From a virus: 64,000 bases of DNA. Positions 1 to 64,000 of the stretch are shown piece after piece; the stretch's first letter is position 1, and every line of letters begins with the position of its first letter. Position numbers and translations under genes: made by a program. The notes beneath the pieces are model-generated. The model did no database searches. It had not been told where the DNA came from and worked only from the letters and a program-made list of their open reading frames with translations. Location: positions 1-64,000 of IMG/VR virus record IMGVR_UViG_3300005253_000098, one strand, 5' to 3'.

Positions 1-237
1 GTGGTAAAGAATGCTGTTTTATATTACAGGGATGGACAATATAGTGTCCCATGTATTTTATTGGACCATTCTGAGGCCGGTGCAAAAATTAGAATTGATA
101 ATCTTTCCGAATGCCCGCCAATGGATGATCTACATAGTTTACTTACCAGCGATACGTCACATCCATGTCGTTGTGTTTGGACCAATAGAAATGAACTAGG
201 AATCGAATACATCGAAGGAGATACGTCTCATGCTTAG
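1..237 (+). CDS. PilZ-domain protein (possibly 5'-partial)
   Basis: C-x3-DHSEAGAKI (DxSxxG motif) and C-terminal CRCVWTNRNELGIEY typical of PilZ beta-barrels. Confidence 0.7.
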   Translation: MVKNAVLYYRDGQYSVPCILLDHSEAGAKIRIDNLSECPPMDDLHSLLTSDTSHPCRCVWTNRNELGIEYIEGDTSHA

Positions 238-748
238 AGCAGTTGATTATGTTATGCGTGGTATGACTAAGAAGAATGCATTATTAAAGGCTGGTTATTC
301 TGATAGTGTTGCATCTACGGATGCAGTGAGTGTATTCGGGCGTGATGATGTTAAGGCAGAGATTGAAAGGCGCAGGAAGCGGATAGCTATGAAGGCTAAC
401 GTTGATGCAGCTTGGATTGTTAAGCGGCTTATGGATATTGCTAATGCTGATATTGCCGACTTGTTAATTGTCGATGATATTGGCAATACGCGTTTGGATA
501 TGGCGCTTATGACCCCTCAATTAAGGCGTGCATTAGAGGGTGAGTTTAGTCTTAGTGAGGAAGGCACTAGTAGTGTTCGTATGCGAGTTAAGACAACGGA
601 TAAGCTGCGTGCGTTAGAAATGTTAGGTAAGTATTTGGATATGTTTACGGATACGGTTAAAGTTGAAGGTGAGATTAGCCTGATTGAGCGCCTTCACGCG
701 GGCCGCTCTCGTGTGTCTGACGGGATCATCTCTGAAGACTTGGACTAA
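230..748 (+). CDS. terS: terminase small subunit (bacteriophage type)
   Basis: ALLKAGYS...A N-terminal motif and DKLRALEMLGKYLDMF C-terminal motif of Terminase_2-like small subunits. Confidence 0.85.
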   Translation: MLRAVDYVMRGMTKKNALLKAGYSDSVASTDAVSVFGRDDVKAEIERRRKRIAMKANVDAAWIVKRLMDIANADIADLLIVDDIGNTRLDMALMTPQLRRALEGEFSLSEEGTSSVRMRVKTTDKLRALEMLGKYLDMFTDTVKVEGEISLIERLHAGRSRVSDGIISEDLD

Positions 749-4926: not shown

Positions 4927-4969
4927 GACTTTATAAACCATAGTGGTTTCTATGGAGTTGTGAAAAACT

Positions 4970-15526: not shown

Positions 15527-16033
15527 ATGGTTAAATTGAAGTATTATTCTGCTCTTGAGTATAAATTGAAGCCCGAAAAACCACATTCAGCTAATGTAGA
15601 TATCCAGTGCGGAGAGGACTTTGTTCTCGAGCAGGGTATCGTGCTGAAGGTTAGAACAGGTCTCTGGATAGACGTGCCTCCGGGTTATGTTTTCGAGATC
15701 TACCCGAGAAGCGGGCTCTCTGCCAAATATGGTATGATATTGGTGAACAGTCCGGGTCAGATTGATCCGGGCTACCGAGACGAGATTAGATTAATACTGA
15801 GCTCTGTGTCTCGTATGACAGTGCTAACTCCCAAACGCTTCAAGGCTGGGGAACGTATCTGTCAAGGTCGCTTAGTTCAGACTCAAAAAGATGTCTATCT
15901 GGATACTAAAAAATTTCCAGTAACATCATATCAAGATTCTGCAGTTTGGGAACCTGTCCTAAGCTTAGAAGACCTGTATAAGGATTCCTTAACCCCTGAC
16001 CGCAAGGGCGGTCTTGGATCAAGTGGAACATAA
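15527..16033 (+). CDS. dut: trimeric dUTPase
   Basis: PRSGL, NSPGQIDPGYRDEI, GERICQ, RKGGLGSSG motifs. Confidence 0.95.
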   Translation: MVKLKYYSALEYKLKPEKPHSANVDIQCGEDFVLEQGIVLKVRTGLWIDVPPGYVFEIYPRSGLSAKYGMILVNSPGQIDPGYRDEIRLILSSVSRMTVLTPKRFKAGERICQGRLVQTQKDVYLDTKKFPVTSYQDSAVWEPVLSLEDLYKDSLTPDRKGGLGSSGT

Positions 16034-54887: not shown

Positions 54888-55316
54888 TTGCCAGTGATCA
54901 TGATGGTCTGGATATTTAATTGGTTTACGAAGGCTGACGAACTCAAGTTATGTCAGGATGCACTCGATATTGCACAAGCAGAGAACAAGAAGTTCAGAAC
55001 GGAGTTTAAGCTTGACAAATTCGAGATTAAATACAACTACAAAGTTGATTTAAAAAGGAAAGTCATAAAATCATTTACCGCTGGTAAGTCTGCACAGCTT
55101 ATCTATGATGAGATAATAGACTTCTTCCCAAGTCTGGCTGAAGAAGGCGAATCATTAGAAGCTTGGCTACCGATAGACGCCGAGAAACAGGAAGATAGTT
55201 CCGTCCAATTCCGAGTCGCAAACGGCTGGGCTATCGTGCTTGTTAACGAAAAAGCAGTTCTCATTGACGGTTGTTCATTCCATAACTACGTCGCTGAGCT
55301 GTTTAAGATTGCCTGA
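54888..55316 (+). CDS. hypothetical protein
   Basis: 142-aa ORF. Confidence 0.5.
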   Translation: MPVIMMVWIFNWFTKADELKLCQDALDIAQAENKKFRTEFKLDKFEIKYNYKVDLKRKVIKSFTAGKSAQLIYDEIIDFFPSLAEEGESLEAWLPIDAEKQEDSSVQFRVANGWAIVLVNEKAVLIDGCSFHNYVAELFKIA

Positions 55317-55504
55317 ATTGAAATTTGGACATTTCAATTTTCTTTCTATATATAATATAATGAGTTGAAAAATATGAACAAAAATATTATGTTTGTTCCG
55401 CCTTTTCACTCCAAAGAATGCGGTTGTTACTGGTATATAGGAAAAGAAATGGTTGTCTGTGATTATCATAAGAAAAATACTGTAATAATAAAAGATGTTA
55501 AATA

Positions 55505-55645
55505 ATGAACGATTTTGAATGCCCGAGCTGCCATAAAATCGGAGGAATTTACTTTATGAGCGGAGCTAATTGTGGATTATGTGGTTGGGATGACAAAAGA
55601 ATCGAGAGAGAGTTAGCCGAGACAGAAATGATGAATAATGGGTAA
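55505..55645 (+). CDS. Zn-ribbon microprotein (46 aa, not in ORF track)
   Basis: CPSC...CGLCGW. Confidence 0.5.
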   Translation: MNDFECPSCHKIGGIYFMSGANCGLCGWDDKRIERELAETEMMNNG

Positions 55646-56033
55646 ATGGTCCAAACTATGGTTCGCGATGTGCTTCCCGCCAAGATTTTTCTATGCCTTC
55701 CTGACGCTCTTGTTCTGGTCGATACTCGTGGTTTTAGCTACTATATCTATGTTGACGGGTCTGGGAGAAGCAATTTTAGGACTACTTTTATTCCTCGGAT
55801 TGTTTGGTCAGACTATTATTACGTGGCTGTGGTTGCGGGCTAAGTGGCTCGGAAAGAAAGCCCAACATTATTTAGACACCATTGGAACCGGCGTAAGCAA
55901 TAAACTCGGTCAGATCGGTGGTTTTACTCTCGAGACCATGGGAAAGGGAAAAGTTGTTTTTCGCGATAAGACCGGCAATATCGTCGGAAAATCTATCGAA
56001 CAAGCCAGATCCGGCATCGATAGACTTAAATAA
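55638..56033 (+). CDS. membrane protein (2 TM)
   Basis: two long hydrophobic helices. Confidence 0.6.
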   Translation: MGKWSKLWFAMCFPPRFFYAFLTLLFWSILVVLATISMLTGLGEAILGLLLFLGLFGQTIITWLWLRAKWLGKKAQHYLDTIGTGVSNKLGQIGGFTLETMGKGKVVFRDKTGNIVGKSIEQARSGIDRLK

Positions 56034-56121
56034 TGATTACTGCATTAGATAGACCAACCTGTAAGTAATATGAACCCACCTGGGCATGTGGCAAAACCGC
56101 CTATTTTTATTGTGATAGATT

Positions 56122-56334
56122 ATGACTTTCATTAACGGTATATGTTCTGCCTGTGGGCACGAATCTACTGAGCATCACGAGAGATTTGTTATGTGTGACT
56201 TTACTCGCTTCTGCAAGAAGTGCGGTGAACTTCACCCCGATCCTTATGTTAAGGCTGTGGCTTGTTTCTGGTATCCAGCCCATTTTCACCCGGATGTTGG
56301 CGGTCAGGTTCCTTGCGTTGAAGTGACCATATGA
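56122..56334 (+). CDS. Cys/His-rich Zn-finger protein
   Basis: CSACGH...CKKCGELH. Confidence 0.55.
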   Translation: MTFINGICSACGHESTEHHERFVMCDFTRFCKKCGELHPDPYVKAVACFWYPAHFHPDVGGQVPCVEVTI

Positions 56335-56555
56335 AGATTTTCGATCATCGAGAGAGATGTGCTGGCTGCAAAGGCTACATAGACCGAGGTGAACACGTCG
56401 ATTGTCTGGAGAGACTGCCTGATGGTTACTTTAGTCAAGAAGCTCGAGAGATCACCTTCCATGGTCCGTCGTTCAACCTGTTCGTCATTGATGATATGGA
56501 ACCAACTCTCGGTAGTGTGGAAGTCCAATTAACATATAAATATTATTACAAGTGA
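56331..56555 (+). CDS. CxxC..HxxC Zn-finger protein (family member 1)
   Basis: RCAGCK...HVDCLERL. Confidence 0.55.
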   Translation: MKIFDHRERCAGCKGYIDRGEHVDCLERLPDGYFSQEAREITFHGPSFNLFVIDDMEPTLGSVEVQLTYKYYYK

Positions 56556-56560
56556 TTACT

Positions 56561-56719
56561 ATGACACACAAACAAGCTAAAAGTTTAGAAGAACTACCAC
56601 ATGTCTGCCCCGAGTGCAAAGCGGACCTCCTAAAGGTAGGATATTCCCAGACATTGAATATAAATCCTCCACACAAGCATTCCTGTGGTAATTGTGATGT
56701 ATTGTTGGGGTATTTTTAA
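56561..56719 (+). CDS. Zn-ribbon microprotein (52 aa, not in ORF track)
   Basis: CPEC...CGNC. Confidence 0.5.
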   Translation: MTHKQAKSLEELPHVCPECKADLLKVGYSQTLNINPPHKHSCGNCDVLLGYF

Positions 56720-56942
56720 CATGGATAATCAAGAAGATAAAGACGCCATCAAGGCTGGAATGGCTGCCCTCGAGGTATTGAAGATGCAAATGAAGTTGTT
56801 TGATATTTTTGGCATAGATGATCCCGAGGTGACTGGTGATCATGAGCTAATGGAGTTCCGTGCTGATTGTCAGATCGTGGTTGAGGCTCTGGATCGAATT
56901 GTCAAGTTTGCCAAGAAACGCTGGGTGGATAAAGTTCAATGA
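56685..56942 (+). CDS. hypothetical protein (likely start MDNQ)
   Basis: helical acidic ORF within the operon. Confidence 0.45.
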   Translation: MVIVMYCWGIFNMDNQEDKDAIKAGMAALEVLKMQMKLFDIFGIDDPEVTGDHELMEFRADCQIVVEALDRIVKFAKKRWVDKVQ

Positions 56943-57214
56943 GTATGCATGATCCCTGTCAGAAGTGCACCCATCGACAGAGCTTCCATTATTATCATCT
57001 CGAGAGAGGCAGATCGAATGTTGATCATGAGCACTCTATTGTTCTGATGTGCACACAGTGTGATACTGAGAACACTCTTCTTACTGAGGAGGCTTATGTT
57101 ATCGAGTCGACTATTGGTTTCTGTGAAAGAGTTGTTCTTAAGTCTGGTGATACGTATGCTGTTGGTGTTCGTGATGGTTTATTGACTATCGGAGTGGAGT
57201 CCTGGTTCAGATGA
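56939..57214 (+). CDS. Zn-finger protein
   Basis: CQKCTH...CTQC. Confidence 0.5.
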   Translation: MSMHDPCQKCTHRQSFHYYHLERGRSNVDHEHSIVLMCTQCDTENTLLTEEAYVIESTIGFCERVVLKSGDTYAVGVRDGLLTIGVESWFR

Positions 57215-57377
57215 GTGTTGTATCGTTTATCTATGCTATTTTGATTGTTTTCGTGTCCGCTGGTGTTGTTATAGTTATGTCTATGATTGACCTTACCGGG
57301 GAACCGACTATAGAACGCGTGACCTTCATTATTGCGGTCATTGCTTTAACGCATTCTCTTGATAAGAGGTCTGTGAA

Positions 57378-57755
57378 ATGAGTGTTGTTGACGAAGGTGA
57401 GAGGCGTTGTCCTGGTTGCAGGCAAGAAGTGACCGTAGAGAACATTCTGGTTCATATGGATTGCCTTGAGAACCTGATGACGGCTTTCCGAGCTGCTCGG
57501 TTGGAGAGAGGGCATGCTACTTCTTTGGAGATTGAGATCGAGGTCAACGACGAGAGACTGCGGAATTCGCTCCTTAATTATCGGGCTGGTATGGAGTCTC
57601 TGATGGTGGCTTATGGTGAAGGTATTCGTCGCCATAATCGAGAGGCTATTCGTATGTATGCTCGTCACCGCGGATTGATTCATATTGTGAGTGTTGCTCT
57701 CGGTGCGTTTGTGGGCTCGTTCATCGGACTGGGTATTATCAACCTGCTTTTTTAG
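57378..57755 (+). CDS. CxxC..HxxC Zn-finger protein with C-terminal TM (family member 2)
   Basis: RCPGCR...HMDCLENL; C-terminal hydrophobic helix. Confidence 0.65.
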   Translation: MSVVDEGERRCPGCRQEVTVENILVHMDCLENLMTAFRAARLERGHATSLEIEIEVNDERLRNSLLNYRAGMESLMVAYGEGIRRHNREAIRMYARHRGLIHIVSVALGAFVGSFIGLGIINLLF

Positions 57756-57795
57756 GTTTGTGAAATATGAAATACTATAGAGGATAAAAGTTCAA

Positions 57796-58128
57796 ATGAG
57801 TATTGTTGGTGATGGTGAGATCCGCTGTGCCGGTTGTAAGCAGATTATTTCTATGGAGATAATTACTAATCACCAGGACTGTATGCAAAGAATTGATACA
57901 CATCGCAATCTGCTCCAGTTCGTGCTCGAGGTCAATCCAGAGGCTCTACAGGAACGCTTGAATCAGCATTATAACACTATGGAGGTATTTGACTCACATT
58001 TTTACGATACGGCTGCTAAGGCTCACGTTTTAGCCAAGAAACGTATTCGTCGGACTGCTATAGTTTGGACTGCTGGTTCTATTTTTGCTATTCTTCTCAC
58101 CCAGTTCCTCTCTTACCTGTTGTTTTAG
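57796..58128 (+). CDS. CxxC..HxxC Zn-finger protein with C-terminal TM (family member 3)
   Basis: RCAGCK...HQDCMQRI; C-terminal hydrophobic helix ending LLF, as in member 2. Confidence 0.65.
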   Translation: MSIVGDGEIRCAGCKQIISMEIITNHQDCMQRIDTHRNLLQFVLEVNPEALQERLNQHYNTMEVFDSHFYDTAAKAHVLAKKRIRRTAIVWTAGSIFAILLTQFLSYLLF

Positions 58129-58802
58129 GTTGATTTTCCCGCAGGAATTCAACCACCTCCTCTTCTAATTGGATACCCCCCTCCGATCTTTGTTACTGTT
58201 TTAGGGTCGGATACTCTTGTGTGGGGTAAGAGCTTTTGCAGGTCAATCTCCCCAGCTGGGTGAGCGACTGTGCCCAGAAATCCTGCAGATCATCGAATTT
58301 CGTAGATTTGTTTGAACTGAGCTTATTTGCAGCTATAAACGTTGATTTATGCTCTATTTTTAATTTAATGTTATTAGATAAGAATACAGCTGCACAAGTA
58401 GATAGAATAGGGTTATAATATAGCTGCTAATAGCTGCTGCTTTGCGGAACTCGTTAGGAACCCTAATTTGCACTCCTTTAGGTAACTAAAAGGGAAAAAA
58501 CAAAGGATTTATAAAGAGAAGTATTATATATAATATAAGACAAAATAAAGGTAAAGTGATAGATGAATAAAAAAATTAAACCAGTATTAGTTTTAAGCAG
58601 CGTAAAGTTAGCTAAAAAACCGCTGCCGTGTAATTCTCAGCTTTCACGTGTGTTAATTGCTGAACCGTAAAAACTTGTTAGGTCTGCCTTGAATTTACTA
58701 CAACCTCTCTGATTCAATTACGTTCATAGTGTATAAGTCAACTACTTCTTCATTTCTTCACTCTCTAAGGTAAGATAGCACGAAAAGACGGTATATATAT
58801 AA

Positions 58803-59921
58803 GTGAATATACTAATAGAAATAGGTGTGAACAATATGGATACAAATGACATAGAAAAACAAATCGAATTGTTACGTAGTAAGTCTAAGACTAACTACGA
58901 CTCTTACAATATATTTAGTGATATTGTAAGTCCTAAAAAGGAAAGAATGGATTCTAAGAGGTCAACAAAGCTAAGAATACAAAGCTTACCTGATATGGAG
59001 ACAATAGATGCAACTACTACTTTAAAGATAGTATTTAATCAACTCGTTGGGTCTGATAACGTCTTTACTTATCCTGCAGTCCTAAAGGGCAGCAAAAAGA
59101 AGCTTAATGATGCTATGGATATTTATCATCCTATAGTTTTTGGTTTTAATGTAGCTAAGAGCTTAATTCAAAACAAGACAAGACTACTTAAGTCTAATTG
59201 GTCTCATATATGGGAAATATTGGAGTTAGCTTTAGCAATAACACCAATAAGCCGTTCTTCTACAGCAGATTCTTTTGCGGGTAGTATGGATTATTTAGAC
59301 GATAAAGGTAACATACTTAACTATGGTAATGGAAATTTTAACTCCAAAGTTAGAGCTGCCTTTAATTATCTTATTGTTGATGATAAGATAAGCCCAAGTT
59401 ATGAGAAAAGATTCAATAAGCTCATAGACCAAGAGGTTTTAATTGAGAAGTCAAAAGAAACCTTTGGAGTTAATCCTAACTTAGAAGAATATACGATTGA
59501 TCTATTGACTGAAGAACAACAAACCTTTTACAAATGCTTCTTTGATTCTAAGAGCAATATCCATTTCTATCTAAGAGATAATCCTAAAAGGTCTCAATAC
59601 AAGCAAGGCAATACACATATAGAGGTCGTTAAGGGATATATGCACAGAGCTGGGATAAGCTATTATAATCCCGTCTTAGATGGAACAATAGCAGGGTTAC
59701 AAACCAATAACCCAAAGCTTTGTGTTCCTTACCAATTTAAGCAATTCCTTAACGTAATAAGCGATGATACCTTAAAGCTTAAACCTTTCTCAGAGAAGAA
59801 CTTAACGGTAAAACAATTACAGTCTAAGTTAGATGAGAAAACATCTAAAACCCTTAAGACAATCTCTGAGCGATCTCATAACTTCTATAAACTTCCTTTC
59901 CCTTATAGCGTAAAGGATTAA
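58803..59921 (+). CDS. hypothetical protein (probable start ATG 58836)
   Basis: 372-aa ORF; TATATATAA box and GGTG SD upstream. Confidence 0.7.
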   Translation: MNILIEIGVNNMDTNDIEKQIELLRSKSKTNYDSYNIFSDIVSPKKERMDSKRSTKLRIQSLPDMETIDATTTLKIVFNQLVGSDNVFTYPAVLKGSKKKLNDAMDIYHPIVFGFNVAKSLIQNKTRLLKSNWSHIWEILELALAITPISRSSTADSFAGSMDYLDDKGNILNYGNGNFNSKVRAAFNYLIVDDKISPSYEKRFNKLIDQEVLIEKSKETFGVNPNLEEYTIDLLTEEQQTFYKCFFDSKSNIHFYLRDNPKRSQYKQGNTHIEVVKGYMHRAGISYYNPVLDGTIAGLQTNNPKLCVPYQFKQFLNVISDDTLKLKPFSEKNLTVKQLQSKLDEKTSKTLKTISERSHNFYKLPFPYSVKD

Positions 59922-60030
59922 CCAATACGCTAATCTACTATAACCAATTTCTTCTTCCCTTTTTTAATACTCACGAATTTAAGTAGTAATAGATTTAACT
60001 CGGTATATAATTAAATGGAGTGATAGAATA

Positions 60031-60180
60031 ATGCACGATTTAGTAGAGATAAGCCCTAAAGACATAAACAAGTATGATAAAACAGAAGTAATTGAAACAG
60101 GAGTTTTAGAGTGGATTCCATTACTTAGACAATATGTTAAGGTTATTAGGTATTACGTTCACCAAACCTTAAGAGAATAA
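60031..60180 (+). CDS. small hypothetical protein (49 aa)
   Basis: GGAGTGA SD; MHDLVEISPKD... Confidence 0.45.
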   Translation: MHDLVEISPKDINKYDKTEVIETGVLEWIPLLRQYVKVIRYYVHQTLRE

Positions 60181-60195
60181 TAGGAGTAATCAATA

Positions 60196-60339
60196 ATGAG
60201 CAAAGGATATATATTTACTCCCAAAGAAATAGCAAGGTTTGAGTATACAAGAATAACAAGGAAAGATATTAATAATGAGGAATTAACGAAAGCTGAAATA
60301 GACTTCGTTATCTTCATAGAACAAGATTTTATAGAATAA
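60196..60339 (+). CDS. small hypothetical protein (47 aa)
   Basis: AGGAG SD; MSKGYIFTPKE... Confidence 0.45.
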   Translation: MSKGYIFTPKEIARFEYTRITRKDINNEELTKAEIDFVIFIEQDFIE

Positions 60340-60374
60340 ACTACTACATAAGAAACCAAATTCTTATTCTAATA

Positions 60375-60402
60375 TTTTTTTTCTTTTTTTTATTTTTTTT
60401 TT
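60375..60402 (+). terminator. long oligo-T tract (archaeal-type terminator)
   Basis: about 28 nt almost pure T directly after the small ORFs. Confidence 0.6.
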
Positions 60403-61545
60403 GGCACTCGGACTCGGACTCCTGGACCAGGGCAATCGTCCTGCCACGAACCCATGCATTTGCCTCATTTCCCTGAACTATTATTTTTTTAACTCGCACT
60501 CGGACTCGGTGGGATAACGCACCCATGCTCAAACTCGGCTTCTTTGGGCTGATCGTCCTGACTCGTGCTCGTTCTCATGCTCATGACTCGTGCTCGGTGG
60601 TATCGGACTTAAGCACTCGGTCACCCCCCTCCAAACTAAACTATTCTTATGATGTCGGACTCGTTCTCGGACTCGTGCTCGGACTGTTCCCAGATTCGAT
60701 CTTTTTGTCTTTTTGAGCACTCGGTCGATCGACTTTCTGGTCTGAACACTAATGCAATCTCAACGCAGCGGTGTATCCAGCTCTCTAAGACCACCTTTCT
60801 GATGTCCCTCTTTTTTCATCGGGCATGAGGGGCTCTCCTGCAATAGGTATTTTAGCGATGCAGAGGTTAAACCACTCGTATAACTGACGATCTACCTATG
60901 CTATCCCGATTGCTTTTTGTCTTTTTATGGGTAGTAATGAACACTCACTCACCCACTTGGGTATGGGTAATTGTAATTTGAACATTACAATTAAATATTG
61001 CACATACACCCATCACACTCGATCACTATCGTTATTATAGCCCGTTCTGTAAAAGTTGTCTTACAAGCTTGTCGGACAAAGTGCTCGCTAACACTCGCAT
61101 TAGTCCGTATAGCCGCTAATTCGGATTTACTCCACACGCTTTTACTCAAATCCACCCTCGTCAAGCGTGATCGATCACTCGGACTACCTCTCGACGCCCT
61201 ACCCTGACCTCCGTTGGACGAACGGACAGCTAATTCACCGCCGAGTGCTGCACTACATTTGAACGCAGCGAAATCTGTTAAGGAAATCAAAAAGAGTGCC
61301 CAATCCACGCACTCAATCCCAAAGCTAAGCAGATTTCGTGCACAAAACAAAAAATGTCAAGACCTCACGACTCGTTAGCTCAGCTTACCATCCGTTGCGT
61401 AAGCCGAAGCACATTTACCCACTCGTTGAACGAGTGCTAATCAAATCCAAGCACATTTCAGCTTTTCGCCACTCGGACTCGATGCCTTGATTTACCGTCC
61501 GTTTGCCAATTGCTGCCCAAATATCCGCTTGTTTTGGCACTCGTC
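60403..61545. repeat. largely non-coding region dense in (A)CTCG motifs
   Basis: about 28 CTCG versus 2 CGAG on + strand by hand count; includes GCACTCGGACTCGG and GACTCGTGCTCG units. Confidence 0.75.
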
Positions 61546-61608
61546 AACTACTCTCCTTTATAAAGACAATTTCCCTCTAAATAAATAAAACACTTTGAGA
61601 TATACTTT

Positions 61609-62547
61609 ATGCTACCGAGTGCTAACCCCTCTCTGAACGAGTCCTCTGAAGAGGTCGTGTGGATAGACGAGTCCCGACTACGTAGGTTTAACGAGTGGTA
61701 TTCCAAAACTATCGCTTGTGATCAACAGTTAGCCGAGCTCAATCTACGGATCGAGTTTGAGGAGAACGAGTTTGAGTTAGAATTACTGAAAAAAGATCGA
61801 ACTAAAATTAGAGCGAGGGTATTAACCAGAACCAAATACTTCTTTTCTATGTGGGGGCTTCTCTATAACTACCACAACAACCCCGAGTTATTTCTATCAC
61901 GTAAACGAGGGCGTAATCCCTCACAACGAGGCGTAACTCACGACGAGTCAGGTCTGACAATCGGTGTTCCTACCCGAGTAACTGGTATGGATATACGAAT
62001 ATACGAACTACACGAGATGATTAAAACTATCGAGTTACTCTCACTACTTATGCCCGAGCGTGAGCCACACGCCCTTATCTCCTTCTATGAATCAGTCCAA
62101 ATCTTCAGGATGTCCGAAGGAAAACGAAACCTGATCCTTGCCGAGTTAGAACAATATATTCTCCCACCTACATTTACCCGACGAGTTATAACCAAAAACA
62201 AAACCATTACCTACATTGTGGAGGTCGAGGTAGAAAGCAATCCCGATGCGAGTAGAACAGCGAGTCTACCGAGTGGTATAAGTAACAAATCTATTCGTCG
62301 ATGGTATCGCTTACGCCGAGACTCTGAGGGTCTCATTACTAAGAAGTGGTATGCTAAAGCTACAGATTTGAACCAACGCCAACGCACAGTTAAACTACAG
62401 TTCGACGAGCTCTCCAAAGACTATATCCCTCCAGAGAAACCCAAACCCACATTACCCCGACGAGTCCTCAAAGCCATGATGCAGCCGAGTAAATATGTCG
62501 ATCCCTTCTCTTTCCTACAAGAGCAACTAAGGATGGAACAAAAATGA
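61609..62547 (+). CDS. hypothetical protein
   Basis: 312-aa ORF with TTTATAAA box upstream. Confidence 0.65.
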   Translation: MLPSANPSLNESSEEVVWIDESRLRRFNEWYSKTIACDQQLAELNLRIEFEENEFELELLKKDRTKIRARVLTRTKYFFSMWGLLYNYHNNPELFLSRKRGRNPSQRGVTHDESGLTIGVPTRVTGMDIRIYELHEMIKTIELLSLLMPEREPHALISFYESVQIFRMSEGKRNLILAELEQYILPPTFTRRVITKNKTITYIVEVEVESNPDASRTASLPSGISNKSIRRWYRLRRDSEGLITKKWYAKATDLNQRQRTVKLQFDELSKDYIPPEKPKPTLPRRVLKAMMQPSKYVDPFSFLQEQLRMEQK

Positions 62548-62723
62548 ACGAGAAACATAGCTGGTGGCTTTATTTCTTTTTTTCCACGAGTGAAGAAGAA
62601 ATGATCGAGGTAGATATGTTAGACTTCCTTGAGATAACTCCAGAACAAGCCCGAGTGATCCGAGAAAGACGTAAGAAGAATCGAAAAGCCATCCGAGAGA
62701 TTGAAAAGAAATTGAACGAGTGA
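62544..62723 (+). CDS. small hypothetical protein (59 aa, not in ORF track)
   Basis: ATGA overlap with the upstream stop; MNEKHSWWLYFFF...KKLNE. Confidence 0.45.
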   Translation: MNEKHSWWLYFFFSTSEEEMIEVDMLDFLEITPEQARVIRERRKKNRKAIREIEKKLNE

Positions 62724-63013
62724 TAAATAAATTGAACGAGACACCCAAATTCAGCGAGTGGAAAACAACCATCGAGGTCTTACTCTGGTATTCCGAGTCC
62801 AAAGAAGATTTAGAGAGATTGTTGAAGCTCAGCGAGGAAAAGAAATAAATTGACCGAGCCGATTGTCATGCGAGTCCCATATACGCCCATGCTTACCAGT
62901 TATCCATATCTCCTTGATATAAAACTCATACCGAGTATTCAATATGAGTGTATCGAGTTATATACATACCCAGTCAAGCGATCTACCCTACCGCTTGAGG
63001 AGGTGAATTCCAC

Positions 63014-63943
63014 ATGGTAGATGAACAAAAACCTAAAACTAAAGCCCAAATTAAAGCAGAAAAAGAAGCCGCTAAGAATAAGCCCGAGTCCCAACCAGAA
63101 ACACAAGCTGCAATTACTTCCACCGACGCTATGTCCTCACTTGACTTATCGAGTGAAGAACAAATCCAAAAACACATAGCTTCCCACGAGGAAATGGATG
63201 ACATGGTTACTTATCTAAGTAACACAGTTACCCAACGAGTCAATAGATCACGAAAACGAGCACAAGTCGGTTATTCAGTCCAACAAATCAACAAATCACG
63301 TATCCTTAAATTGGCAGTAATTGTGAACGAGATAAACGGATATTCCAATCCCTCTTTCCTCAAGAACAGTTACTTCGACTTCTTCACTCTTCCCTTAGCC
63401 AAACGAGAGGAGGTTGCAGCTATCCGAGCTATAACAACTCTTGCTGACCGAGCTGAAGCAGTCCTTGATTTCAAGAACCTGAGAACTATCTCAAGAACTA
63501 AACAGAAATTCGACAGAAACCTTGCCGAGATCAAGAAATACTACCGAGTTGCTGAAACTTGCCGAGCTCTATTCACTGGCTCTAACGCTTTGATTAAAAT
63601 TGCCTTCGAGGAAAAACTCTTATTACCCGACGAGTCAGCTCTTGGTAATCCTGACGGTTACTTTTTCAATCCCAACGTATCCGAGTTAATCGACTCTTGG
63701 AAAGGTCAAGCCGCAGGTCTAAGAGAGGAGGTTGGCGGTGAGCCTAACGAGGACGACATCAAACATACTATCAACGTATTTGCAGCTCTCTACGAGTTAC
63801 AACAGAAATACTTCGACAGTATTAGCGAGGTGTTTGGATTCCTTCAACGAGCTTCCCCAATCGTCAATAAATATATGCTGAGTTCCTACGAGCAGATCAA
63901 AACTGCAGCTTTAAAGGTTGGTCTCTTGAAAGCAACGAATTAG
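63014..63943 (+). CDS. hypothetical helical protein
   Basis: 309 aa; strong GGAGGTGA SD. Confidence 0.7.
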   Translation: MVDEQKPKTKAQIKAEKEAAKNKPESQPETQAAITSTDAMSSLDLSSEEQIQKHIASHEEMDDMVTYLSNTVTQRVNRSRKRAQVGYSVQQINKSRILKLAVIVNEINGYSNPSFLKNSYFDFFTLPLAKREEVAAIRAITTLADRAEAVLDFKNLRTISRTKQKFDRNLAEIKKYYRVAETCRALFTGSNALIKIAFEEKLLLPDESALGNPDGYFFNPNVSELIDSWKGQAAGLREEVGGEPNEDDIKHTINVFAALYELQQKYFDSISEVFGFLQRASPIVNKYMLSSYEQIKTAALKVGLLKATN

Positions 63944-64000
63944 GATCGTTTCCTATCGAGCCTCATGGCTCTAATTCTTCTCTTTTAAAATTTTTTTGCA

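Follow-up and report, generated by a model that had tools for sequence, protein, structure and literature searches.

The viral contig IMGVR_UViG_3300005253_000098 of IMG/VR carries an array of the tetranucleotide CGAG at near-saturating density, a word under selection whose fixed orientation is imposed on coding and non-coding DNA alike. The array has two arms separated by an AT-rich centre (61546-61608; 63 bp, 25% G+C). As a sequence-only reading of this DNA had proposed, the word points outward from that centre: CGAG is read on the + strand in the right arm and on the - strand in the left arm, while the centre itself holds neither CGAG nor the inverse word CTCG. Our window consisted of positions 1-64000 of this single 90526-bp contig; the array crosses the right edge of the window, and the numbering is shared by both. 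Genes are our own calls, made from open reading frames (ORFs) and a codon-score model. Feature coordinates are collected in Table 1.

The sequence-only reading had counted by hand 63 CGAG and no CTCG in 61609-63960, and 28 CTCG and two CGAG in 60403-61545; all four numbers are exact. CGAGT accounts for 32 of the 63 sites and ACTCG for 21 of the 28. From base composition, 7.2 CGAG are expected in 61609-63960, in agreement with the earlier estimate of about 6-7 per 2.3 kb, and first- and second-order Markov models give 12.8 and 36.2. The corresponding expectations for CTCG are 6.0, 8.9 and 6.2. Over the full right arm (61609 to ~67082), 137 CGAG are found and still no CTCG. Base composition, first-order and second-order models predict 17.3, 29.5 and 77 CGAG, and 14.0, 20.0 and 12.3 CTCG, respectively; the probability of observing no CTCG where 12.3 are expected is 4.6e-6. 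CGAG is enriched five- to eight-fold over the composition and first-order expectations and reaches a density of ~25 per kb. When all 4-mers and 5-mers were scanned in 5-kb windows, CGAG/CTCG stood out by far as the most strand-asymmetric pair in the genome (121:0), and the next entries were sub- or super-strings of this pair or ordinary coding-strand skews. A T follows the word at 34% of the right-arm sites and at 73-75% of the left-arm sites (21/28); a longer consensus around CGAG was looked for and dropped.

The array ends abruptly at its left, with no CGAG in 58001-60400. On the other side, a weaker one-sided excess continues through 67083-79611 (to ~79.6 kb), where 126 CGAG stand against 29 CTCG. 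The strong domain thus measures ~6.7 kb in total (60.4-67.1 kb), 1.15 kb for the left arm and 5.5 kb for the right one, and occupies ~6-7% of the contig.

Selection on the word was quantified through opportunities, defined as adjacent codon pairs where some synonymous choice creates it. The 12 early-type genes of the right arm (61609-67082) carry CGAG at 119 of 219 opportunities (54%), as compared to 88/324 (27%) in the genes of 67.1-79.6 kb and 136/1124 (12%) in nineteen reference genes. For CTCG, the same three sets give 0/130, 20/183 and 99/1117 (9%). Each of the 12 genes uses 43-78% of its CGAG opportunities and has zero CTCG. Use then drops at ~67.08 kb to ~27% and, further along the + strand gene series, to ~12-15%. 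One of the 12 ORFs, 66287-66820, is doubtful on its coding score; swapping it for 66441-66749 changes the figures to 114/205 for CGAG and 0/115 for CTCG.

The 114 observed CGAG are not accounted for by codon or amino-acid usage, the control on which the sequence-only reading had made its claim depend. Synonymous shuffling within genes returned 60.7±4.7 CGAG (maximum 74 in 500 shuffles) and 60.9±4.9, and recoding with late-gene codon usage returned 22.2±4.1. All three reading frames contribute (58, 43 and 18 sites): the word is formed at 58/116 opportunities when a C-ending codon precedes GAG, at 43/50 when the codon CGA precedes a G, and at 18/53 when it is split between CG and AG. In early genes, GAG represents 83/132 of the Glu codons and CGA 66/125 of the Arg codons, versus 304/729 and 106/620 in late genes. 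With the late-gene rate as reference, no 4-mer deviates more than CGAG (z = 19.1), and its own overlaps CCGA, CCCG and ACGA come next. The motif also runs through intergenic DNA, as had been noticed from the letters: 15 sites lie in the 525 nt of non-genic right-arm DNA (28.6 per kb), a density equal to that of the genes. Among other words, the Shine-Dalgarno-like GGAG is under-used within the early genes (8/121 opportunities vs 22% in the reference genes), and CCCG is over-used (20/99 vs 4%).

The left arm shows the same word in non-coding DNA and in the opposite orientation. The sequence-only reading had considered that this block might be a genuine minus-strand coding region, the skew then merely following transcription. 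This is not the case: all three stop codons are found in each of the six frames and no positive coding score was obtained; recoding with an alternative genetic code was tried and dropped. Here, CGAG often occurs as tandem CGAGNN hexamers in 2-4 copies, and 9/27 neighbour distances equal 6 nt. The only two CGAG of the + strand both sit within short palindromes. The two arms closely abut the centre, with the array starting 3 nt to its left and 8 nt to its right, and the innermost sites form an inverted pair, GCACTCG at 61537-61543 and CGAGTGC at 61616-61622. No Rfam match at E ≤ 1 was found in the left arm, and its predicted folds are no better than those of shuffled sequences (z = -1.6, +1.2 and +1.1).

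In addition, the sites are spaced non-randomly. Among the 136 neighbour distances of the right arm, 42 lie at 18-24 nt and only 17 are shorter, with a second peak at 44-45 nt. As a control, the same number of sites was drawn at random from the genic opportunities in 2000 sets. Genic distances of 18-24 nt were observed 32 times vs 16.1±3.2 in the random sets, and distances under 18 nt 16 times vs 31.7±3.4; neither value was reached in any of the 2000 sets. An opportunity located 18-24 nt from another realised site is itself realised in 48/55 cases, and one located 6-17 nt away in 25/70. Spacer DNA follows a similar pattern, as the gaps between the sites at 64017, 64039, 64062 and 64106 are 22, 23 and 44 nt.

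ORF1, the first gene of the right arm, has a sole homologue, P0022, with 74% identity. At positions where ORF1 realises the word, 24/26 dipeptides of P0022 are CGAG-compatible, vs 16/26 at unrealised opportunities (Fisher P = 0.019). Among changed dipeptides, 8/10 remain compatible at realised sites vs 3/13 at unrealised ones (P = 0.012). Typically, Glu is retained and the preceding residue is swapped for another one having a C-ending codon.

Taken together, the evidence on DNA versus RNA, the link to expression and the purely geometric support for an origin lead us to prefer, with a probability of about 40%, the reading in which CGAG serves in DNA as an orientation-sensitive signal and affects a machine moving off from the centre both ways, most plausibly that of early transcription. 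CGAG, or CGAGT where it is free of coding constraint, would be a cis-signal on the strand pointing away from the centre. Its reader would be a sequence-specific factor with a footprint of ~20 bp, bound to duplex DNA or to the displaced sense strand. Depending on the orientation of its sites, this factor would act on the machine departing from the centre on either side, for which RNA polymerase at the onset of infection is the most plausible candidate. The centre would then be a promoter, possibly a bidirectional one, the gene block would be early, and the array could represent a domain-wide operator or a 'stoperator'-kind control of an immediate-early block. Binding of the array may serve to switch the block off, to protect it or to counteract its silencing.

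Three observations lean towards duplex DNA as the target: the absence of CTCG, the mirrored gene-free arm, and the position of the right boundary at overlapping genes. CGAG is predicted to be unpaired with a probability of 0.38, vs a mean of 0.47 (rank 138 of 199), and CTTG, the wobble complement, is two-fold enriched. As the accessibility of CGAG is below average and CTTG is enriched, avoidance of RNA pairing does not explain the lack of CTCG. The stepwise fall in use, the arrays abutting the centre and the palindromic TATA-like box TTTATAAA in front of ORF1 lean towards a link with expression. TTTATAAA could be a promoter element; it has 6 copies in the contig, and those at 4930, 58508 and 83713 also stand 40-55 nt before a + strand ATG. 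All credible genes of the right arm and of the weaker zone are on the + strand, and no credible minus-strand gene lies inside the array. Since every right-arm gene is on the + strand, the orientation of the word there coincides with that of transcription, and nothing within the genome tells a DNA signal apart from an RNA signal.

Candidates for the reader are encoded in the block itself. A very basic 132-aa protein (28 K+R) is encoded at 64117-64515, and several small early-block proteins with CxxC pairs at 64515-64727, 65599-65901 and 65898-66224; one of these CxxC proteins, that of 64515-64727, gives a sub-threshold zinc-ribbon match (E = 0.008). The basic protein and the weak zinc-ribbon protein are candidate nucleic-acid-binding readers.

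Several points weigh against this reading. The total number of TTTATAAA copies is about chance level, no recognisable promoter was found in the left arm, and a - strand T6+T4 run is present at ~61340-61355, ~200 nt from the centre. Such a run would end a leftward transcript after ~200 nt, so that most of the left array would not be transcribed from the centre. The right boundary at ~67.08 kb falls at two genes overlapping by 4 nt, with no spacer or T-run, and the internal T7 runs at 63991 and 66230 leave the density unchanged; around the first of them, sites are equally dense on either side (63957, then 64017, 64039, 64062 and 64106). Therefore, the domain is not one transcription unit. As regards spacing, a long-range periodicity of 10.5 or 21 nt was not found, and the 6-nt distances of the left arm (9/27) are at odds with simple exclusion by a 20-bp footprint. 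Under a stoperator-type model, nothing would bar inverse copies or place 137 sites mostly in genes. No reader protein was recognised with Pfam, PHROGs, PADLOC, AlphaFold2 or the Atlas. The conservation of CGAG site positions suggested by the comparison above comes from one protein pair (ORF1/P0022). Finally, the runs listed with the stretch comprise four DNA and zero RNA runs, which bears on both early expression and the leftward transcript.

The closest working precedent for the array is the stoperators of Cluster A mycobacteriophages, with repressors such as L5 gp71 and that of TipsytheTRex. These sites are asymmetric and co-oriented with transcription, and a reversed site no longer affects the elongating polymerase (PMC9283540); stoperators are 13-mers, present in just over twenty copies per genome, in promoters and short intergenic spaces. 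Like stoperators, the array has many asymmetric copies, and 137/137 right-arm sites are on the sense strand, with transcription deduced from gene orientation. In contrast, its word is only 4-5 nt long, its 137+28 copies are packed at ~25 per kb into one 6.7-kb domain, at least 114 of the 137 right-arm sites are inside genes, certain spacings are preferred, and one arm is a gene-free mirror image. Stoperators have a cognate monomeric repressor encoded by the virus; here, no DNA-binding family was recognised beyond the weak zinc-ribbon match (E = 0.008, below the cut-off) and the basic 132-aa protein. The array thus falls outside the stoperators by site length, placement and number, and is without a known repressor. 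No account of such an array was found in the collection of papers that was searched.

A more specific form of the DNA-signal reading is rather unlikely. CGAG, written on a ~22-nt lattice through the immediate-early genes and the mirrored gene-free arm, would nucleate two outward-growing, head-to-tail nucleoprotein filaments. These filaments, or a polar reader equivalent to them, would delimit the domain for its expression, protection or shut-off. Such a mark would be new among virus genomes. The array may also be one member of a wider habit, in which marine, probably archaeal, tailed viruses have their own words (GGTTACAAAA, GAG); in this genome, no gene devoid of GAG/CTC was found. If a reader exists, the array is a clear natural example of a second code superimposed on protein-coding sequence: of the synonymous choices available for the word in 12 genes, over half go to this oriented 4-nt motif, and its inverse is forbidden. 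It would offer a testable way into the first minutes of infection by a virus that is uncultured and possibly archaeal, and would extend polar signals such as Chi, KOPS and stoperators to a far shorter and denser regime. Synonymous recoding and codon-based analyses of viral early genes might then destroy or misread function.

A role of the centre as a replication origin or loading site, with CGAG as a Chi-, KOPS- or primase-type word, is the alternative that we take most seriously, even though we consider it rather unlikely. In either arm, CGAG would then be on the lagging-strand template and control a helicase-nuclease, a translocase or a primase, for instance by stopping exonucleases nearing the origin or by boosting recombination in a variable early block. 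The mirror-image arrays around a 63-bp element of 25% G+C, one of them gene-free, recall an origin, in which an AT-rich element is expected between oppositely oriented repeats. That the inverse word is strictly avoided (0/130) is expected of a polar DNA signal, no transcription unit ends at the right boundary, and a branching of contigs after ORF1 in one sequencing run (X1, see below) is compatible with a region hot for recombination. However, no initiator and no protein of the Orc1/Cdc6 or Rep type is recognised beside the centre, where ORF1 and the upstream 372-aa ORF are both familyless, and the GC skew, which the sequence-only reading had proposed to check, does not flip there, the + strand being C-rich on either side. 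The strong array covers a small part of the contig and steps down with the gene series, and the 18-24 nt spacing is not predicted by Chi, KOPS or primase models. A primase site is expected on the lagging-strand template throughout the replicon, whereas the excess is confined to a small domain.

The flanks of the array do not continue its polarity. In the + strand genes of 54888-58128, to the left of the centre, both words are raised, CTCG to 16/59 (P = 4e-5 vs the 9% baseline) and CGAG to 17/77 (P = 0.01). Further left, at 46.5-54.6 kb, minus-strand genes carry CTCG on the coding strand at 35/238 opportunities (P = 0.002), an excess that points towards the centre. There is therefore no consistent genome-wide polarity, which counts against the origin explanation.

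The array was also compared with known polar words. Chi sites are 5-8 nt long, at a density of about one per kb or below. Their polarity is defined with respect to an origin or a DNA end and matters because a moving enzyme (RecBCD or AddAB) reads one strand; the enzyme of the host sets the word, which its genome over-represents too. The array resembles Chi as an oriented short word over-represented by selection and locally concentrated. It differs by its 4-nt core, its small domain and a density ~100 times higher, and the virus is possibly archaeal. No Chi-reading enzyme is known in archaea, and the nearest named relatives of the viral DNA polymerase are archaeal. In the lambdoid phages studied in PMC3784561, Chi sites number ~0.2 per kb and are densest near the origin and the packaging site (pac), a distribution that speaks for an origin here. 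KOPS/SRS motifs, which guide translocases, are highly skewed words (PMC3384302). Like them, CGAG switches orientation at a defined point. KOPS are 8-mers distributed along entire replichores; they point to dif and direct FtsK, whereas the CGAG array is local: no replichore-wide skew is seen, the strong skew being restricted to 60.4-67.1 kb with inconsistent flanks (no search was aimed at a dif or Xer site or at an FtsK-type reader). Moreover, 25 copies per kb of a 4-5-mer far exceed any known Chi, KOPS or primase need. The oriented, selected code announced by the sequence-only reading stands, and the density steps of 54%, 27% and 12% look more like expression classes than like a genome-wide skew of the Chi or KOPS type.

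An RNA-level tag is unlikely. CGAG(U) in the sense transcripts of early and, more weakly, middle genes would be read by an RNA-binding, RNA-cleaving or RNA-modifying factor, for the timed destruction of early mRNA or the sequestration of a host regulator, and the left arm would encode a non-coding 'sponge' RNA with tandem CGAGU sites. Comparable cases are T4 RegB, which destroys early mRNA at GGAG, the sponge RNAs CsrB and RsmZ, which carry many short sites, and CsrA, one of the dimeric RNA binders for which sites ~20 nt apart are known to be preferred. Every gene enriched in the word has it on its sense strand, its use falls along presumed temporal classes (54%, 27%, 12%), and a single orientation follows naturally from a single strand. 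The left arm, gene-free and unstructured (z = +1.2), also resembles sponge RNAs through its clusters of tandem CGAGNN. However, such a tag leaves the total avoidance of CUCG unexplained, given the below-average accessibility of CGAG and the enrichment of CUUG. The left arm has no recognisable promoter and meets a - strand T-run ~200 nt from the centre, and no Rfam family, significant structure, RNase or RNA-binding domain was recognised in the block. No RNA run is listed for the stretch.

A defence-related layout is very unlikely. In phage T7, all sites of the Type III enzyme EcoP15I have one orientation. By analogy, a single orientation would spare the first-expressed or first-entering DNA from Type III/ISP restriction, for which asymmetric sites in inverse orientation are required; in another version, the array would be a decoy titrating a host enzyme whose site is asymmetric. 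As in T7, an asymmetric word keeps one orientation in a stretch (137:0 and 28:2 in the two arms, placed tail-to-tail), but the T7 sites are not enriched, whereas CGAG is enriched five- to eight-fold and spaced. The near-lack of CTAG, GGCC and GTAC in the contig suggests restriction pressure, and early-injected regions are reported to decide restriction sensitivity (PMC12455610). Nevertheless, evasion predicts loss or neutrality of sites, not an enrichment that uses 54% of the opportunities, and predicts neither the spacing preference nor a gene-free arm of tandem sites. The only packaging gene recognised (230-748) is ~30 kb off on the map, no terminal repeat was found, and the decoy version is without an identified target.

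It is hardly credible that the array has no reader and is a by-product of codon usage, amino-acid composition, dinucleotide or context-dependent mutation bias: early genes are richer in GAG and CGA than late genes and a second-order Markov model alone yields 77 of the 137 sites, but within-gene synonymous shuffling halves the count (61±5 vs 114), all three frames are used with CGA chosen in 43/50 cases when G follows, intergenic density is equal, the non-coding arm has the opposite orientation, CTCG is at 0/130 and the spacing is non-random.

Table 1 Features of the CGAG array and of its contig.
Feature	Position	Strand	Remarks
Small terminase	230-748		PF03592, E = 6e-17; at the very start of the contig
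dUTPase/dCTP-deaminase-like gene	15527-16033		
T-rich tract	60361-60402		T8, T8 and T10 on + strand; 42 nt; ends the left arm
Left arm	60403-61545	-	28 CGAG on - strand, 21/28 followed by T; gene-free
Palindrome CACTCG-TTGAA-CGAGTG	61420-61436		Carries one of only two + strand CGAG in the left arm
AT-rich centre	61546-61608		Orientation flip
Palindromic TATA-like box TTTATAAA	61557-61564		52 nt upstream of the ORF1 ATG
Right arm	61609 to ~67082 (window part to 64000)	+	12 small + strand genes and spacers
ORF1, 312 aa	61609-62547	+	26 CGAG, 26/52 opportunities; no known family
ORF, 59 aa	62544-62723	+	7/14 opportunities; coding score
ORF, 56 aa	62850-63020	+	4/7 opportunities
ORF, 309 aa	63014-63943	+	20/39 opportunities; no family above threshold
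T7 run after the 309-aa ORF	63991-63997	+	

The virus is a tailed virus, as shown by a tape-measure protein and the small terminase. IMG/VR classes the record as linear, and its completeness is estimated at 74% (CheckV). A family B DNA polymerase (PolB) is encoded, whose nearest named relatives are haloarchaeal (~22% identity); two further relatives have 82% and 62% identity. The host is possibly archaeal, and a GT2-TPR search gave no hint about it. The majority of the contig proteins have no family match in Pfam, PHROGs or PADLOC. The stretch occurs in marine-sediment metagenomes of two studies. Counts of bacterial-type promoters and intrinsic terminators in the contig are at shuffle level. 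The idea of a terminal repeat was dropped: there is no head or tail repeat, the record is classed as linear, and a depth step in run X1 is accompanied by contig branching and absent in run X2. If the contig were joined head to tail, an open frame of 143 codons would span the junction; an end repeat was not found.

The palindromic 4-mers CTAG, GGCC and GTAC, and to a lesser extent CGCG, are nearly missing across the contig. None of them occurs in the right arm, where the remainder of the genome coded on the + strand would predict 0.2-1.6 per 5.4 kb. The scarcity of CTAG, GGCC and GTAC looks like restriction avoidance. No DNA methyltransferase was matched with PF01555, PF00145 and PF02086 in the six frames of the contig, which is estimated to be 74% complete, so that the absent part could encode one.

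Upstream of the left arm, the T-rich tract forms a terminator-like, oligo-T end of the preceding + strand genes. A 372-aa ORF (58803-59921) lies in a markedly AT-rich island (31-34% G+C) directly upstream of the arm and uses CGAG at 0/20 and CTCG at 1/35 opportunities. It has two homologues among 1.8 billion representatives, belongs to no family, and its AlphaFold2 model has a pLDDT of 38.7. The model of ORF1 is also poor (pLDDT 35.9), and no usable Atlas match was obtained with it. For the small early ORFs, ORF1, the 309-aa ORF and the 372-aa ORF, Pfam, PHROGs and PADLOC gave nothing beyond sub-threshold matches.

Searches for related loci with the 309-aa ORF, PolB and P0022, and with alignments of ORF1 and PolB, returned none in viral, metagenome and genome collections. 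In a phage collection, no blastn match was found, and tblastn gave only PolB matches of ~23% identity. Logan contigs from the runs are either identical to the stretch or belong to a distant relative that barely covers the early block. In run X1, a possible source sample, the Logan depths are 78.9 for ~56873-62587, 66.3 for 62558-62765 (208 nt) and 34.9 for 62736-76599; run X2 shows no depth step. The breaks of X1, immediately behind ORF1, point to coexisting strains with a common centre and ORF1 but different early genes thereafter.

Pattern scans of IMG/VR retrieved at least 119 loci with a 14-mer of the left arm and at least 120 loci with four tandem CGAGNN units; among the matches listed, the contigs were unrelated and mostly G+C-rich, and none resembled the array. 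One unrelated contig that came up via the tandem-hexamer pattern (24 kb, 52% G+C) displays a strong 4-mer bias that is one-sided but opposite in sense. In its 13.2-kb locus, sense-strand CTCG is used at 165/465 opportunities, vs 43/386 for CGAG.

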